Virus record (IMG/VR): IMGVR_UViG_2648501186_000016
Origin: a virus
Taxonomy: Duplodnaviria; Heunggongvirae; Uroviricota; Caudoviricetes
Length of the DNA: 10,679 nucleotides
Strand: one strand, 5' to 3'
In this document: piece after piece, positions 1,625-6,539 of the stretch
How the letters are laid out: each line of letters begins with the position of its first letter
Numbering within the stretch: position 1 is the stretch's first letter
Position numbers and translations under genes: made by a program
Notes under the pieces: model-generated
Told to the model about the DNA's origin: nothing
Seen by the model: the letters and a program-made list of their open reading frames with translations, nothing else
The model's database searches: none

Positions 1625-1845
1625 GCTGCACCTCCGAGATGCTTCATGTTTTTTCCGGAGCGAAAGGTTATAAGCGGCATACTGACGCGGTAATTACGGC
1701 CCAGCGGTTCACAAATCACCTTCTGACATTCACGGTCCACCAGGCTAACACGTAGAACATGTCCTGCAGGTGTGGTGTACCACTGACCCGGACGAGGACA
1801 ACGGAAAGTCTGATTGGTAAACCGTTTGAAAATATTCCGGATCAT
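1621..1845 (-). CDS. Small hypothetical phage protein (74 aa), possibly DUF4222-like
   Basis: ORF in the track. Both ends are translationally coupled (ATGA overlaps at 1842-1845 and 1621-1624) within the early-right operon. I recognise no strong motif. Confidence 0.55.
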   Translation of the reverse strand: MIRNIFKRFTNQTFRCPRPGQWYTTPAGHVLRVSLVDRECQKVICEPLGRNYRVSMPLITFRSGKNMKHLGGAA

Positions 1846-2993
1846 TTGCGCCCCCTTACCTCTGAAGGGTTCAGCGACAAATTTATGAGGCAGGCCAGTG
1901 CCGAAGCATCATTAATATAGTCATACAAGCTAACAGCCAGCGGAGATTCGGCTTTTGCCAACATAGGATAAAGCTGCTGCAGCCAGACCTGATGAATTGA
2001 TGAAATGTAGGAACAGAGAACGCTGGCGTTATGTGCAACGTCGCTCGGTACAGCGGGCTTTGAAAGCTGTTTCTCCATCTGGTTAAAGGCATTGATGTAT
2101 GCCTCTTTGAACTGGGCAGCACGTTTACCCGTGAAACCCATAGCAAGAAACGCAAAGCCGTCGCGGGTTATTTGATAGCAAGGTAGTTTGCGGCCTGTGC
2201 AATCGGTGTAATCACTCACCGAAAAATTGCGGGCAGTGAATGATGCGGAACATTCAAGCGTGCGGATCTTTTTCAGTACATCGTCATGACGTTTGGAGAA
2301 GAAGTTGGCAACAGCCAGGGATGAAGTAACAGCCTGACCATCAACGATGGCAATTTCAGGTTGAGTGAGGGTTGGGATCGTAGCCATGATGGCAGCCTCT
2401 TTGGTGATTTTTAATAACTCACCACCAAGGCTTTCCACGACCTTATTGGTGGTGAGACGTACAGGGGTGGAAATACCGGTCACCAAAGAACCCGGCCCAA
2501 CCGAAGTTGGCCCTGCACGCCCCACCATAATTTGGGCGTAATGCTGCTCATGACACAAAAAAACCGCAAGAGCGCGGTTGTGCGCTTTGGTGAATTCCGG
2601 GTTTCCACGCCCGGCACCCGCTTTATAAGGTGCCTGAACAGTGTAACGTCCCGGAATGGCAGAATCAATGTGCTGGTGGTCCTTCACACTCAACAAAATC
2701 ACGCCTGAATTTCCACAAAGGACTAAAGCATTCATGCGGGTAGTCTTTGCGAAGATAGATAACGCGCTGTGTTTCTGGCTCCCAACGAATAACATGAACA
2801 TAAAGTCCTCTTCCGTCACGAAACCAGCGGTTAAGTTCCTGCACAACTCGCCCCCCACAGTCAGGTAAAGTTCTCTGTGGTTACTAACAGCCAGGTGATT
2901 TGGTAATCTGCATTCATGCCGTAACAACAGGTGTGCAGCGACACTGACCACCAGCTGTTGCGACAAACGGTTATTTGCCGTTAAACTGTTCAT
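1842..2993 (-). CDS. Rha-family phage regulatory protein module (aa 203-383) preceded in frame by a 202-aa region of unknown function
   Basis: The C-terminal part MATIPTLTQPEIAIVDGQAVTSSLAVANFFSKRHDDVLKKIRTL...YQITRDGFAFLAMGFTGKRAAQFKEAYINAFNQME is a full Phage_pRha-type domain. It has its own ATG (2387-2385) and SD (AGAGGCTGCCATC-ATG). The upstream ATG at 2993-2991 overlaps the CII-like stop (ATGA) and has GGAG 10 nt upstream. About 606 nt run stop-free, so the N-terminal region is or was coding. An alternative model is a Rha-only CDS at 1842-2387. Confidence 0.6.
   Translation of the reverse strand: MNSLTANNRLSQQLVVSVAAHLLLRHECRLPNHLAVSNHRELYLTVGGELCRNLTAGFVTEEDFMFMLFVGSQKHSALSIFAKTTRMNALVLCGNSGVILLSVKDHQHIDSAIPGRYTVQAPYKAGAGRGNPEFTKAHNRALAVFLCHEQHYAQIMVGRAGPTSVGPGSLVTGISTPVRLTTNKVVESLGGELLKITKEAAIMATIPTLTQPEIAIVDGQAVTSSLAVANFFSKRHDDVLKKIRTLECSASFTARNFSVSDYTDCTGRKLPCYQITRDGFAFLAMGFTGKRAAQFKEAYINAFNQMEKQLSKPAVPSDVAHNASVLCSYISSIHQVWLQQLYPMLAKAESPLAVSLYDYINDASALACLINLSLNPSEVRGRK
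2555..2579 (-). terminator. Intrinsic-terminator-like hairpin inside the 383-aa ORF
   Basis: The minus strand reads AACCGC-GCTCTT-GCGGTT followed by further Ts (7 consecutive T in total, plus-strand A run 2557-2563). It is preceded by two more hairpins on the same strand: CCGGG/CCCGG at 2597-2614 and GGCACC/GGTGCC at 2613-2634. The stem is modest (6 bp), so function is uncertain. Confidence 0.3.
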
Positions 2994-3541
2994 GCGTTAG
3001 TTTCTCCACAGACACAAAACGCCACGACGCCCGGAGCTGCACACTCGCGGGCGTCACTCTTTTCTGGAGCGCAGAAAATTTTGTAGACCAGTGCCGCATG
3101 CTCCTGGAGCTTCGAAATTGACAGATACAATTCATCATTAATTGCTGTCTGCTCGTGTGGCTCCACTACCCCATCTTCGATTGCCGAACGAATCTGCTTT
3201 GAGTAACTCCCGATCTGTTCGATGACTTCCAGCAGGCGCTGGTTTATATCTGCGTTCTCTACTTCCTCAATTTCAGGAAGCGATACAAACACCCCACCAG
3301 CAGACTGTGCGACAGCATCCGCAATGTAGTGAGTGCCAGCAGCACGCTGTAAAATCATTGCCCATCCCAGCGGGAAAATCTGATCGCCATCTGCACGAAG
3401 GCGGTTGAATAAAGCGTTCTCTGTAACATCCAGCCACTCAGCAGCTTCAGCGTAACCCCCCGGCAACGCCGCGATAGTTTTTCTGACAGCTTTCACGTAC
3501 CACTCAGGCTGTTTTTCCACTTTCCAGTGATGATTACCCAC
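2990..3541 (-). CDS. CII-like phage regulatory protein (phage 186 CII / CP76 family-like)
   Basis: 183-aa ORF with a GTG start at 3541-3539, preceded by AGGAGG plus 6 nt, and overlapping the cro-like stop. The pattern ...TENALFNRLRADGDQIFPLGWAMILQRAAGTHYIADAVAQSAGGVFVSLP...INQRLLEVIEQIGSYSKQIRSAIEDGVVEPHEQTAINDEL... matches my recollection of the 186 CII/CP76 architecture. Its position immediately after cro is as expected. Confidence 0.65.
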   Translation of the reverse strand: MGNHHWKVEKQPEWYVKAVRKTIAALPGGYAEAAEWLDVTENALFNRLRADGDQIFPLGWAMILQRAAGTHYIADAVAQSAGGVFVSLPEIEEVENADINQRLLEVIEQIGSYSKQIRSAIEDGVVEPHEQTAINDELYLSISKLQEHAALVYKIFCAPEKSDARECAAPGVVAFCVCGETNA

Positions 3542-3794
3542 GGCTTACCTCCTGTTCCTGTGGTTTAAACCCATTCTGGTTTTGGCTAGATTGAAAACGT
3601 GCCGGATAAAGAATCTGCATTTCGCTGATTTCACCCTTAAAAAAATTGGCCAGACGTTCTGCAAGATCGATAGATGGAATTTGTTCCAGTCTTTCAATAC
3701 GACTCAGCGTCGCTGGATTGACCTGAACGCCAGCAGCAACATGCTGCAAAGTAAATCCGTGCGCCTTACGCACATTCCGTAATGGTGATTGCAT
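3534..3794 (-). CDS. Cro-like XRE-family HTH regulator
   Basis: 86 aa. The HTH is FTLQHVAAGVQVNPATLSRIERLEQIPSIDLAERLANFF. SD GGAGG lies 4-8 nt before ATG 3794-3792. The gene is divergent from the cI-like repressor across a 97-bp operator/promoter region. Confidence 0.8.
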   Translation of the reverse strand: MQSPLRNVRKAHGFTLQHVAAGVQVNPATLSRIERLEQIPSIDLAERLANFFKGEISEMQILYPARFQSSQNQNGFKPQEQEVSRG

Positions 3795-3808: not shown

Positions 3809-3871
3809 TTGCGTGATGAGCATATTATTTCACGCAAATATTTTGCGCAAGTTGATTTGCTTAACGCGCAA
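3809..3871. promoter_or_regulatory. OR-like operator cluster between cro-like and cI-like genes
   Basis: TTGC-N7-GCAA site at 3857-3871 (TTGCTTAACGCGCAA). One-mismatch copy at 3809-3823 (TTGCGTGATGAGCAT). Palindrome TTGCGCAA at 3843-3850. Large inverted repeat TTGCGTGA-N13-TCACGCAA at 3809-3837. The outer sites lie 48 bp apart (2 x 24), matching the 24-bp spacing of the OL-like pair. Confidence 0.55.
3822..3850 (-). promoter_or_regulatory. PR-like promoter for the cro-like operon
   Basis: On the minus strand: TTGCGC (complement of 3845-3850), 17-nt spacer, TAATAT (complement of 3822-3827). It sits about 20-25 nt upstream of the cro-like SD/ATG and overlaps the operator motifs. Confidence 0.5.
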
Positions 3872-3885
3872 TAAAGAAATGTAAT
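3857..3885 (+). promoter_or_regulatory. PRM-like promoter for the repressor gene (predicts a leaderless mRNA)
   Basis: TTGCTT (3857-3862), 17-nt spacer, TGTAAT (3880-3885). The ATG at 3892 lies 7 nt after the -10 and there is no SD before it. The -35 sits inside the TTGC-N7-GCAA site. Confidence 0.4.
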
Positions 3886-3891
3886 AAACGC

Positions 3892-4584
3892 ATGAACATA
3901 GGAAACCGAGTCAGACAACTTCGCCAGGCGAAGAACATGAAAATCGCCGATCTCGCTGAAGCAATAGGAGTGGATGCGGCGAATATCTCACGCCTGGAAA
4001 CAGGTAAGCAGAAACAATTCACTGAACAAGCCCTGAGTAATATTGCCAAGAGCTTAGGTGTTGATATTGCTGATCTCTTTACCTCAGACTTCAAAAGTAA
4101 TACTGTATGTAAAAACAGTATTAGTGAGGATGTTGCGCAGGTGAAGGATGTATTCCGTATTGAAATGCTGGATGTCAGTGCCAGTGCGGGAAATGGCCTT
4201 ATCCAGGGCGGTGATGTCATTGATGTGATTCATGCCATTGAATACAGAACTGATAATGCTGTATCGATGTTTGGTGGACGGCCAGCCAATCACATTAAAG
4301 TTATCAACGTTCGTGGGGACAGTATGTGTCCAACCATTGAGCCAGGAGATCTCATCTTCGTTGATGTCAGTATCAATCAGTTTGATGGAGATGGTATCTA
4401 TGTATTTGGTTTTGATGATAAAATTTATGTCAAACGACTGCAAATGATACCTGACAAACTACTGGTGATTTCTGATAACCAGATTTACCGTGAATGGGGA
4501 ATTACCAGCGAAAATGAACACCGGTTTATGGTCTTTGGAAAGGTCTTAATCAGCCAGTCACAAACCCTTAAGCGACACAATTAA
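3892..4584 (+). CDS. cI-like prophage repressor: N-terminal XRE HTH plus C-terminal S24 (LexA-like) autopeptidase
   Basis: HTH: MKIADLAEAIGVDAANISRLETGKQ. Putative Ala-Gly cleavage site in DVSASAGNG. Ser nucleophile in VRGDSMCPTIEPGDLIFV. Lys in IYVKRL. 230 aa, divergent from the cro-like gene. Confidence 0.9.
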   Translation: MNIGNRVRQLRQAKNMKIADLAEAIGVDAANISRLETGKQKQFTEQALSNIAKSLGVDIADLFTSDFKSNTVCKNSISEDVAQVKDVFRIEMLDVSASAGNGLIQGGDVIDVIHAIEYRTDNAVSMFGGRPANHIKVINVRGDSMCPTIEPGDLIFVDVSINQFDGDGIYVFGFDDKIYVKRLQMIPDKLLVISDNQIYREWGITSENEHRFMVFGKVLISQSQTLKRHN

Positions 4585-4604
4585 CCCTTACCTCCTCATC
4601 AATT

Positions 4605-4629
4605 AGCCACCCAAAGGTGGCTTTTCATT
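4605..4629 (+). terminator. Rho-independent terminator after the repressor gene
   Basis: AGCCACC-CAAA-GGTGGCT (7-bp stem, 4605-4622) followed by TTTTCATT, 21 nt after the TAA at 4582-4584. Confidence 0.7.
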
Positions 4630-4639
4630 ACCCTTTAAA

Positions 4640-4692
4640 TTGCATATCTCGCAACAAAAACACTTGCATAATGCGCAACTTCATTTTATCTT
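4640..4692 (+). promoter_or_regulatory. OL-like operator pair with a candidate PL-like promoter
   Basis: Two perfect TTGC-N7-GCAA sites: TTGCATATCTCGCAA (4640-4654) and TTGCATAATGCGCAA (4664-4678), 24 bp apart centre to centre. Candidate promoter TTGCAT (4664-4669), 17-nt spacer, TATCTT (4687-4692). The exact promoter assignment is uncertain. Confidence 0.45.
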
Positions 4693-5086
4693 TCTTTCCA
4701 GACAAACAAACAAGGTACTAACAAAATTTGGTTGTAACACGGCGTATGGCACATGCGTCGTTAGCGGTCTGGGGACGTTAAAGGGGACAATCCACTCCTT
4801 GCTCGGGCAAACAAACCAGGTAGCCGGAATGTGCAAGTCAATGATGATGCTGATAAGACGCCTAACCAGCGTGGCGATTCGGTTTGACGCCTGGGAAGAG
4901 ACCAGGGTGCAACGATGAGGGCATTTATGGAGCCGCGACAAAGTGTGGTGCCGTAACTGGCTAAGTGCTCTCAGCGTTGTGGTAATCCGCGAAATGGCGC
5001 GGCGGTAAGTATGGCGGGGTTACTCTTTCCCCGTTGAGGACACCGGATTGTCAGGTTGACCATACGCCTGAGTGACAACCCCACCA

Positions 5087-5150
5087 CAACAGCCACTGCT
5101 TTGGCGGTACCAGTTTGTACCCTTGCTTCCGGCTGGTACCGCTCTTTTTA
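5087..5150 (+). ncRNA. dicF: DicF-like sRNA including its terminator hairpin
   Basis: TTTGGCGGTACCAGTTTGTACCC...CTGGTACCGCTCTTTTT resembles my recollection of E. coli Qin DicF (TTTCTGGTGACGTTTGGCGGTATCAGTTTTACTCCGTGACTGCTCTGCCGCCCTTTTT). There is a perfect 10-bp stem GCGGTACCAG (5104-5113) / CTGGTACCGC (5133-5142) followed by TCTTTTTA. The context matches dicF: the repressor-controlled leftward operon of a lambdoid prophage. The 5' end is not determinable from sequence. Confidence 0.55.
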
Positions 5151-5286
5151 CAAAACAGAGAAGAGCATCACCGGACGACGGGCTCATAACCCAATCCATC
5201 CGGGCGGCTGCCACCGCAGGTGTTCTTCTCCGTTTTGTGGAGAAACCAACCGACCTTGCAGGGTCGATATGATGAGGAGCAGCAAA

Positions 5287-5649
5287 ATGGCTAGCGAACG
5301 CAGTACTGATGTGCAGGCATTTATTGGGGAGCTGGACGGCGGCGTATTTGAAACCAAAATCGGCGCAGTTCTCAGTGAAGTCGCTTCCGGTGTGATGAAC
5401 ACGAAAACCAAAGGTAAGGTCTCGCTCAACCTGGAAATCGAACCGTTTGATGAGAATCGTGTGAAAATCAAACACAAACTCTCGTATGTTCGCCCGACTA
5501 ACCGCGGGAAAATTTCCGAAGAAGACACCACCGAAACGCCGATGTATGTCAATCGCGGTGGTCGCCTGACTATTCTGCAGGAAGACCAGGGACAATTACT
5601 GACTCTTGCTGGTGAACCTGACGGAAAACTCCGCGCAGCAGGTCATTAA
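5287..5649 (+). CDS. yfdP: YfdP-like prophage protein (120 aa)
   Basis: MASERSTDVQAFIGELDGGVFETKIGAVLSEVASGVMNTKTKGK... with SD GAGGAG 7 nt upstream of ATG 5287. The track ORF (from TTG 5056) extends upstream through non-protein-like sequence that contains the terminator. In-frame ATG 5269 is an alternative start. Synteny with the yfdQ- and yfdR-like genes supports the call. Confidence 0.75.
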   Translation: MASERSTDVQAFIGELDGGVFETKIGAVLSEVASGVMNTKTKGKVSLNLEIEPFDENRVKIKHKLSYVRPTNRGKISEEDTTETPMYVNRGGRLTILQEDQGQLLTLAGEPDGKLRAAGH

Positions 5650-5714
5650 TATCGTTCTTAATTAACTGATTATTTATCTCATCACTGAATATCTTTATAT
5701 AGTGAGGACTTATT

Positions 5715-6539
5715 ATGTCTCAGAACTTAGACGCAACCGCAATTAATCAAATCCATGCCCTTATTTCTGCTCAGGGTGTTAATGAAATTATCAGTAAGAT
5801 TGGTGCCGATGCTGTGGCATTGCCTGAGAATTTCCGCATTCATGATCTGGAAAAATTTAATTTAAATCGCTTCCGTTTCCGTGGTGCGCTTTCCACTGCC
5901 AGCATCGATGACTTTACCCGTTATTCTAAAGATCTTGCAGATGAAGGCACCCGCTGCTTTATCGATGCTGATAATATGCGTGCCGTCAGTGTGCTTAACC
6001 TGGGTACTATTGATGAACCAGGTCACGCAGATAACACCGCCACTCTCAAACTGAAAAAGACAGCACCGTTCTCTGCTCTGTTGTCTGTTAATGGCGAGCG
6101 TAACTCCCAGAAATCACTGGCAGAATGGATTGAAGACTGGGCCGACTACCTTGTGGGCTTTGATGCTAATGGTGACACCATTCAGGCAACAAAAGCGGCT
6201 GCGGCGGTCCGTAAAATCACGATTGAAGCAAACCAGACCGCTGATTTTGAAGATAATGACTTCAGCGGCAAACGCTCCCTGATGGAGTCTGTCGAAGCGA
6301 AGACTAAAGACATTATGCCAGTGGCATTTGAATTTAAATGCGTTCCGTTTGAAGGCCTTAAAGAACGTCCGTTTAAATTACGCCTCAGCATTATCACTGG
6401 CGATCGTCCTGTACTGGTTCTGCGCATTATTCAGCTGGAAGCGGTGCAGGAAGAAATGGCTAACGAATTTCGTGATCTGCTTGTTGAGAAATTTAAAGAC
6501 AGCAAAGTAGAAACCTTTATTGGTACTTTCACCGCCTGA
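5715..6539 (+). CDS. yfdQ: YfdQ-like protein (DUF2303 family), 274 aa
   Basis: Clean 274-aa ORF, SD GTGAGGA before the ATG. The sequence and its position between the yfdP- and yfdR-like genes match my recollection of the CPS-53/KplE1 yfdPQR cluster. Confidence 0.8.

Follow-up and report, generated by a model that had tools for sequence, protein, structure and literature searches.

The element described here occupies positions 5103-5150 (plus strand) of a 10,679-nucleotide (nt) stretch of DNA, referred to as the window, from IMG/VR record IMGVR_UViG_2648501186_000016, a virus of the Caudoviricetes. It consists of a hairpin followed by a U tract, and it is located in the leader of an early-left operon. 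A first-pass annotation had described it as a small RNA (sRNA) of the DicF family embedded in that leader.

Organization of the early-left leader

The window belongs to a lambdoid prophage of the type represented by mEp460, cdtI, SfV and CPS-53. The features of the locus are the following:

3534-3794, minus strand: cro-like helix-turn-helix (HTH) gene (domain search)
3892-4584, plus strand: repressor gene with HTH and peptidase S24 (Pfam search)
4605-4627, plus strand: intrinsic terminator 3' of the repressor gene, AGCCACC-CAAA-GGTGGCT with a T-rich tail, hairpin at 4605-4622 (terminator scan)
4640-4679, plus strand: OL/PL-like region with operator-like TTGCATATCTCGCAAC (4640-4655) and TTGCATAATGCGCAAC (4664-4679), direct-repeat family D1
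4976-5090, plus strand: block A, a conserved structured leader RNA (matches to Qin and P1/P7, folds, RNAalifold)
5091-5102, plus strand: short linker CAGCCACUGCUU joining the block A closing helix to the hairpin (alignments with DicF alleles)
5103-5143, plus strand: DicF-related hairpin, arms 5103-5115 and 5131-5143 (predicted fold and inverted repeat)
5144-5150, plus strand: U tract C UUUUU A (C and TTTTT at 5144-5149), with five U as in DicF
5148-5240, plus strand: long double-stranded RNA (dsRNA) stem, 5148-5169 with 5219-5240 (fold free energy, dG, -43.1; z -5.9)
5274-5279, plus strand: Shine-Dalgarno sequence GAGGAG (RefSeq annotation of identical DNA)
5287-5649, plus strand: yfdP, first early-left gene, 120 amino acids (aa), ATG at 5287 (RefSeq annotation of identical DNA, Pfam search)
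5715-6539, plus strand: yfdQ (DUF2303), followed by yfdR (RefSeq annotation, Pfam search)

The terminator at 4605-4627 separates transcription of the repressor gene from the early-left operon. Downstream of it, the operator-like TTGC-N8-GCAA repeats at 4640-4655 and 4664-4679 resemble the sites between the repressor and cro genes (3857-3872). A consensus sigma-70 promoter scan called no promoter at the OL/PL-like region, the hexamers there being weak and poorly defined, and the promoter assigned to 4640-4679 is presumptive. A leader of ~600 nt extends from the operator-like sites to yfdP. With the regulators, the operator-like repeats and yfdP so arranged, the position given by the first-pass annotation holds (after an OL/PL-like region, before the first early-left gene), as does its statement that a yfdP-like gene, and not a dicB-like open reading frame (ORF), comes next.

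The hairpin opens with TTTGGCGGTACCAGTTT (5100-5116, plus strand). Its predicted 13-bp stem comprises 10 Watson-Crick pairs with G-U pairs at both sides, and its 3' arm, CTGGTACCGC(T), has its last position at 5143. The arms enclose a pyrimidine-rich loop of 15 nt, UGUACCCUUGCUUCC (5116-5130), which lies inside the TTTGTACCCTTGCTTCCGG of the first-pass annotation. The dG of the hairpin is -21.2 kcal/mol, compared with -11.5 +/- 2.5 for shuffled sequences (z -3.92), and none of 200 shuffles folds equally well. An exact 10-nt inverted repeat (I13) was picked up independently at the same hairpin. In addition, the DicF 17-mer TTTGGCGGTATCAGTTT agrees with 5100-5116 at 16 of 17 bases, one position being mismatched, at a chance expectation of 0.01 matches in the window. 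These hairpin statistics and the DicF match indicate a real feature and not a chance match, which confirms that a core block, a strong stem and a U tract resembling DicF are present.

The GC-rich stem stands directly before the U tract, as in a canonical intrinsic terminator. The 15-nt loop is outside the canonical range of 3-8 nt, and since it is above the 8-nt limit of the consensus terminator scan, the hairpin was overlooked by that scan. The U tract completes an intrinsic terminator and might also serve as a 3' end of the Hfq type. No U tail follows the hairpin on the minus strand.

The long dsRNA stem starts within the U tract. It forms a perfect helix of ~23 bp in most alleles and is kept in Citrobacter despite substitutions. 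In the Qin prophage, which carries dicF, the counterpart is a 28-bp helix that starts at the DicF U tract (L003 2936-3100, z -4.4), and the 72-nt RNase III product of DicF ends in the 5' strand of this helix when counted from the annotated dicF start (PMC5069750). Because this RNase III end falls inside the Qin helix, read-through transcripts of the window would, by analogy, be cut at the 23-bp stem, making it a putative RNase III processing site. Only a short distance separates the end of each stem from the next ribosome-binding site, that of yfdP in the window and that of dicB in Qin.

Relation to the dicF locus

The similarity to the dicF locus extends well upstream of the hairpin. Positions 4976-5082 share 93% identity over 107 nt with K-12 Qin (E 4e-41), and the Qin stretch stops 25 nt before the annotated dicF. 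Counterparts of block A are located at 2752-2866 of the Qin locus (L003) and at ~1490-1600 of a further locus, L004. In the predicted fold, a closing helix formed by GUUGUGGU (4976-4983) and ACCACAAC (5083-5090) contains three hairpins. An RNAalifold analysis of 20 variants, including P1, supported 29 pairs, of which 7 are changed on both sides, and by eye the apical stem of the second hairpin has further swaps, such as GGCGGGG/CCCCGUU vs CCAGGUG/CACCUG and CUGGG/CCCAG. Block A is thus modelled as a four-way-junction RNA of ~115 nt with covarying helices, for which no Rfam family was found at E<=10. In the mEp460 and SfV alleles, the sequence at this place is unrelated, yet the folded domain is closed by the same GUUGUGGUG/CACCACAAC helix. 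This pairing is present in all three unrelated block types, with a compensatory change in Qin (GUUGUGGC/GCUGCAAC), and it explains the conservation of CACCACAAC.

Candidate roles for block A are antitermination, service as a platform for processing, and formation of the sRNA body. A put-like antiterminator of the HK022 type was considered and rejected. The put RNA is a ~70-nt two-stem RNA just after PL, and put sites are alike in sequence; block A is a four-way junction of ~115 nt, and no sequence similarity to the HK022 immunity region was found.

In P1 and P7, block A (77-81% identity) lies in the leader of the ban operon, just after the C1-repressed Pban promoter, in a stretch annotated 'dicF-like region'. 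An intrinsic terminator follows it there as well; this P1 terminator (GCCCAUCUUCGGGUGGGC and a U run) is unrelated to the hairpin of either DicF or the window. The similarity behind the 'dicF-like' name resides in block A and not in DicF itself. As judged by a crude script test, a hairpin and a T run are found shortly downstream in 81 of 81 sampled block A loci, and at least nine hairpin sequence types are represented.

Like DicF in Qin, the hairpin of the window comes directly after block A, and both leaders belong to early-left operons under a repressor of the cI/DicA type. The two elements have UUUGGCGGUAYCAGUUU in common (UUUGGCGGUA(U/C)CAGUUU), beyond which their loops and 3' arms diverge. 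Both then end in CCGC(C/U)C-UUUUU, which provides the CCGC side of the GGCGG/CCGCC stem base and the five-U tail, and in both cases a long dsRNA stem lies immediately 3'. The window hairpin differs in its perfect 13-bp stem and 15-nt loop, the stem of DicF being interrupted, and in having yfdP, yfdQ and yfdR downstream instead of dicB. At the linker, DicF alleles have 19 additional nt (UAUCAAUUUUCUGGUGACG) that the window does not align with. Based on the block homology with Qin and on the family of stem-sharing hairpins described below, the hairpin is a positional homologue of dicF; with its partial sequence homology, it is interpreted as a diverged allele of the DicF-body hairpin.

To place this resemblance on a scale, covariance models were used. 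The Rfam model of DicF, RF00039 (gathering threshold, 48 bits), had no match in the whole window at gathering score and none on 4950-5300 even at E<=10. As positive controls, K-12 dicF scored 76.7 bits and an allele that combines the DicF hairpin with another 5' end reached 61.1 bits. The first-pass annotation had proposed this search, and the window lies beneath the gathering threshold, which is the computational half of what it had named as speaking against its own proposal. A DicF-only model made from 15 distinct natural alleles had its best window match at exactly 5100-5149 (14.6 bits, E about 0.03); this match spans model positions 14-59 only and skips the loop. The DicF resemblance is therefore detectable but is far under family level.

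The portions of DicF used for target recognition were then compared. The 5' end of DicF is made by RNase E and pairs with xylR, the 3' part pairs with ftsZ and pykA, and the 3' end comes in two versions, one made by termination (53-nt RNA) and one by RNase III (72-nt RNA) (PMC5069750). In the alignments, the 19-nt segment (UUUCUGGUGAC(G)) carrying the 5' end cut by RNase E together with the seed for xylR is absent from the window. The loop/3' region involved in ftsZ and pykA pairing (UUUUACUCCGUGACUG) is likewise absent and is replaced by UGUACCCUUGCUUCC. The window is thus entirely without the first DicF seed and carries other sequence at the place of the second.

Target pairing was predicted with the single-stranded parts of each RNA and scored against shuffles, with DicF as control; full-length duplex folding against the targets was uninformative because it ignores intramolecular structure. 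For DicF, the 5' end paired with xylR at -16.7 kcal/mol (shuffle fraction 0.006), and the loop paired with pykA at -22.3 kcal/mol (0.006) and with ftsZ, at the ribosome-binding site, at -18.8 kcal/mol (0.11). The loop and linker of the window did no better than shuffles against ftsZ, xylR, pykA, manX and GcvB (fractions 0.14-0.83). The 5' linker gave E -7.3 with xylR (0.83), the loop gave a fraction of 0.66 with pykA, and the best duplex of the loop with ftsZ (-20.1, at -37) falls upstream of the ribosome-binding site (0.14). The four mRNAs that the first-pass annotation had suggested for this comparison consequently all gave predictions within the shuffle range. When the window was searched for the complement of the loop, the element itself was the sole match.

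With no RF00039 match, 14.6 bits from the DicF-only model, the seed absent and the loop replaced, membership in the DicF family is not borne out. The first-pass annotation was correct in what it observed and half right in what it made of it: the positional and partial homology stands, and the family assignment does not.

sRNA-17 and a family of hairpins with variable loops

A closer relative of the hairpin is found in Escherichia coli K1. Strain RS218 makes a 193-nt RNA, sRNA-17, from an mEp460-like prophage, as determined by rapid amplification of cDNA ends (RACE) and Northern blotting (Front Microbiol 2020, PMC7719688). The primers and the supplementary alignment of that paper contain caccacaacagccactgctttggcggtaccagtttgtac[a/c]cttgcttccggctggtaccgctctttt (PMC7719688). 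Because the 5'RACE primers are antisense to the plus strand of the window, sRNA-17 lies on the plus strand and ends at the hairpin. Strains PAR (CP012379) and 2013C-4974 (CP027587), which are listed as carriers of a 'degenerative sRNA-17' (PMC7719688), are 100% identical to the window over the stretch searched, 4600-5700. The allele is also carried by the O55:H7 strain CB9615.

The relationship is modular. Positions 5082-5300 are 99% identical to mEp460, so that the last ~68 nt of sRNA-17 (CACCACAACAGCC, the hairpin and UUUU), continuing through to yfdP, are shared with the mEp460-type allele at this identity, on the same strand and in the same prophage type. In contrast, the 5' ~110 nt are other sequence in RS218 and block A in the window, both being closed by GUUGUGGU/ACCACAAC. 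The full 193-nt sRNA-17 was accordingly not matched, as window positions 4990-5082, which are taken up by block A, have no match in mEp460; copies of this kind are the ones termed 'degenerative' (PMC7719688). The authors of the sRNA-17 paper cite DicF solely as an example of an unrelated RNA, and they report no homologue in Rfam (PMC7719688). By alignment, the window hairpin is the 3' module of sRNA-17, and the comparison suggests that sRNA-17 is an allele of the dicF locus, a link that appears new relative to the literature searched.

Two GTTA repeats 17 nt apart at 4760-4780 (plus strand) fit the pattern of the ArcA site predicted in the sRNA-17 paper. The mapped 5' end of sRNA-17 corresponds to about 4975 in the window, and the repeats are ~195 nt upstream of this point. 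Since no sigma-70-like promoter was detected between these repeats and 4976, the 5' end may be a processing site.

The phenotype of the sRNA-17 mutant can also be viewed in light of this arrangement. The pKD3 cassette is presumably transcribed in the direction of priming site 1 and hence of yfdP. According to the deletion primers, the hairpin stays in the mutant and a cat cassette is inserted (PMC7719688), and yfdP was reported to rise ~96-fold, from 0.5 to 47 reads (PMC7719688). With the hairpin kept and the cassette in this presumed orientation, the rise is most simply explained as a polar effect, and it may be one.

To determine how the hairpin varies, IMG/VR was scanned twice, with the block A core and with a degenerate hairpin pattern, and the results were sorted by script. 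The scans yielded 24 distinct hairpins, which share a single scaffold, UUGGCGG-N-A-Y-CAGUU ... CCGCC-UUUU, and sort into about ten loop types. In addition to the loops of DicF and the window, these types include UUUUUUCUUGAAGUUCGA, UUCAUUCCUUU, UUUCAUUGCUGG, UUUCUCUCCCUUAUUU, UUCCAUCCCUUGAAGUCC and, from Citrobacter, UUUUUUCCUUAGUCCUUU. Loop length ranges over 11-19 nt, and pyrimidines make up 67-94% of each loop. Stems change in a compensatory manner across the hairpin types (UAC/GUA vs CAU/AUG; GGCGG/CCGCC vs GGUGG/CCACC). In the IMG/VR loci, GGUACCAG-type stems always have a yfdP-type leader downstream, and the DicF and CAUCAG types always have a dicB-type leader. Such a common stem with varying loops fits the remark in the first-pass annotation that the loop is different and the targets may differ. 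Among 27 window-type IMG/VR copies, 4 of the 26 stem nt are variable and every variant keeps pairing, and 4 of the 15 loop nt are variable, a density not below that of the stem. The pairing-preserving single-nucleotide polymorphisms (SNPs) show that the stem is clearly selected; the loop is without extra conservation.

Recombinant arrangements are also present in IMG/VR. After block A, three loci (L034, L055 and L049) have the DicF 5' seed UUUUCUGGUGA joined to a short different hairpin, GGCGGAAAUGGAUAUCCGCC, and two others (L012 and L041) retain the DicF hairpin with another 5' end. From these seed-only and hairpin-only alleles, seed and hairpin recombine independently. The Rfam model detects only the alleles with the DicF hairpin and another 5' end, and not those with the seed and a different hairpin. 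A family of hairpins with variable loops and a conserved upstream domain appears new relative to the literature searched.

The 78-nt element is present in 1996 of 5426 complete E. coli genomes, in up to four copies per genome, and no annotation covers the full-length E. coli copies among the matches listed. With a strict pattern, GTDB species representatives gave two E. coli and one Citrobacter only, which indicates that the family is narrow. Enterohaemorrhagic E. coli (EHEC) strains Sakai and EDL933 and enteropathogenic E. coli (EPEC) E2348/69 are not among the strains listed with the element. In K-12, CPS-53 has yfdP and is without the element, so K-12 data sets cannot help.

Elsewhere in the window, at 2445-2633 (minus strand), Rfam identifies two RNAs arranged in tandem, a C4 antisense RNA at 83.6 bits and isrK at 67 bits. 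The pair lies inside a 383-aa ORF (1842-2993, minus strand) annotated as antirepressor in mEp460, the coding-sequence start of which is probably over-called. It constitutes a module like P1 immI and Salmonella isrK-anrP within a lambdoid prophage.

Proposed function and alternative explanations

The best explanation, to which a probability of roughly 0.7 is assigned, is that the hairpin and U tract at 5103-5150 act as intrinsic terminator for a structured leader RNA of the early-left operon, and that they are a diverged allele of the DicF hairpin and the module shared with sRNA-17. Its most likely function is termination and formation of the 3' end of the leader RNA, insulating yfdP-yfdR. The hairpin and U tract are present in the sequence, and the stem stays paired from one allele to the next and shows covariation among the related types of hairpin. 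In the proposed sequence of events, the hairpin would stop transcripts coming from PL or from upstream, leaving yfdP-yfdQ-yfdR silent. Termination would release a stable RNA of ~175 nt (4976-5150), with the closing helix guarding its 5' end and the hairpin its 3' end. After induction, read-through transcripts would be cut by RNase III in the 23-bp stem, comparable to the 72-nt form of DicF.

The layout resembles that of the lambda PL leader, with its tL terminators and its RNase III site in the N leader: both leaders belong to a leftward operon under repressor control, and in both a terminator and a long stem of the RNase III type come ahead of the first gene's ribosome-binding site. Unlike lambda, the window has no N gene, nutL boxA/boxB or sequence similarity that could be found. 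ORF 4640-4918 was rejected as a candidate N-like protein of the leader, as it has a TTG start, no arginine-rich motif, no Pfam match and no annotation.

Several observations weigh against this explanation. The scan for sigma-70-like promoters was negative near 4976, so the 5' end may be processed or may differ. The 193-nt RNA was mapped in RS218 only, in an mEp460-type allele whose 5' domain is of other sequence. A loop of 15 nt is unusually large for a simple terminator, and pure termination may not be the whole story. At the same time, the SNP density of the loop (4/15) is no lower than that of the stem (4/26), giving no sign of a conserved seed. Finally, both RNase III cleavage and Hfq binding at the element are inferred. 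A role of the loop in trans is plausible by analogy with DicF and, if real, would involve targets other than those of DicF. The specific proposal that the loop, with its 15 mostly pyrimidine nt, serves in trans as an anti-Shine-Dalgarno seed is put at slightly under even odds.

The most serious competing explanation, rated a little lower still, is that the hairpin is only a terminator, that is, a tL-type insulator or attenuator of the early-left operon with no role in trans, and that the released RNA is a by-product. The perfect GC-rich stem and U tract, the pairing-preserving SNPs of the stem next to a loop at least as tolerant of SNPs, and the lack of a significant target in the pairing predictions are all consistent with this. 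Moreover, some terminator follows every sampled block A locus, including the unrelated one in P1, which suggests that termination itself is selected. However, efficient terminators usually have loops of 3-8 nt, and loops of 11-19 nt with 67-94% pyrimidine occur here in every variant. The homologous DicF hairpin is a proven regulator that uses its loop region (PMC5069750), and sRNA-17 accumulates as a discrete, Northern-visible RNA (PMC7719688).

A functional DicF-family sRNA, in the form of a 50-70-nt Hfq-dependent RNA cut from the operon transcript and repressing ftsZ or other DicF targets, is improbable. It would account for the 5' arm, stem base and U tract in common with DicF, for the same place after block A and for the position of the best match of the DicF-only model. 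It is contradicted by the RF00039 searches, by the missing xylR seed and replaced ftsZ/pykA-pairing loop, and by shuffle fractions of 0.14-0.83 for ftsZ, xylR, pykA and manX where the DicF controls for xylR and pykA reach 0.006. In addition, the ~12-nt linker leaves little space for a single-stranded seed, and the RNA mapped at the related allele is 193 nt long and not 50-70 nt (PMC7719688).

Still less probable is a GcvB decoy of the AgvB type, in which CACAACA at 5084-5090 would mimic the R1 targets of GcvB and sponge this sRNA. AgvB uses CACAACA, the consensus of GcvB R1 targets (PMC4104026), the motif of the window stands immediately 5' of the terminator hairpin, and CACCACAAC is retained in alleles with otherwise unrelated upstream sequence. 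AgvB and AsxR of EHEC prophages (Tree et al. 2014) are also prophage RNAs with a conserved terminator scaffold and a short variable part. In those RNAs, however, the variable part is the 5' end, whereas in the window it is the loop, and CACAACA is the 3' strand of the block A closing helix. There it pairs with GUUGUGGU and is probably not free, and the closing-helix pairing argues against a free GcvB mimic. Against GcvB R1/R2, the predicted duplex stays within the shuffle range (fraction 0.26), the Rfam models of AgvB and AsxR (RF02702, RF02703) have no match in the window, and AgvB is of unrelated sequence and located at the PR' moron site, not in a PL leader (PMC4104026). The Pas sRNAs were also considered and set aside as unrelated RNAs of the late region.

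Protein coding on the minus strand (mEp460 gp36/gp37-like; ORFs 5020-5595 and 4971-5096), with the hairpin as an incidental feature, is very improbable: hypothetical proteins are annotated across the stretch in mEp460 (gp36, gp37; L002 3097-3650) and in several phage records, but the ORFs have no Pfam match, RefSeq genomes processed by the NCBI pipeline have no annotation in the stretch, the ORF of 191 aa runs antisense to yfdP, and mosaic boundaries and covariation track the RNA helices and not a reading frame, so that the ORFs are probably spurious calls over structured RNA.

DicF is the classic prophage sRNA linking prophage induction, oxygen and cell division, and the present comparison suggests that the DicF hairpin belongs to a larger set of alleles with a common scaffold and differing loops. 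For the operon of the window, the order of structured domain, terminator and RNase III stem would explain how yfdP-yfdQ-yfdR are insulated in lysogens. Because the element is widespread and unannotated in the sampled records, transcriptome and RIL-seq studies may overlook it or name it inconsistently. A broader and rather unlikely reading is that DicF is one member of a hidden superfamily of leader RNAs in prophages, each assembled from three modules that can be exchanged: a domain with a long-range closing helix (block A or a non-homologous equivalent), a conserved hairpin-terminator scaffold with a swappable, pyrimidine-rich anti-Shine-Dalgarno loop of 11-19 nt, and an RNase III stem. If this is true, block A would be a cis element that passes polymerase through the terminator after induction, or a processing platform that releases an sRNA, and the window allele would be a regulator with host targets of its own, present in more than one third of E. 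coli genomes and invisible to Rfam.

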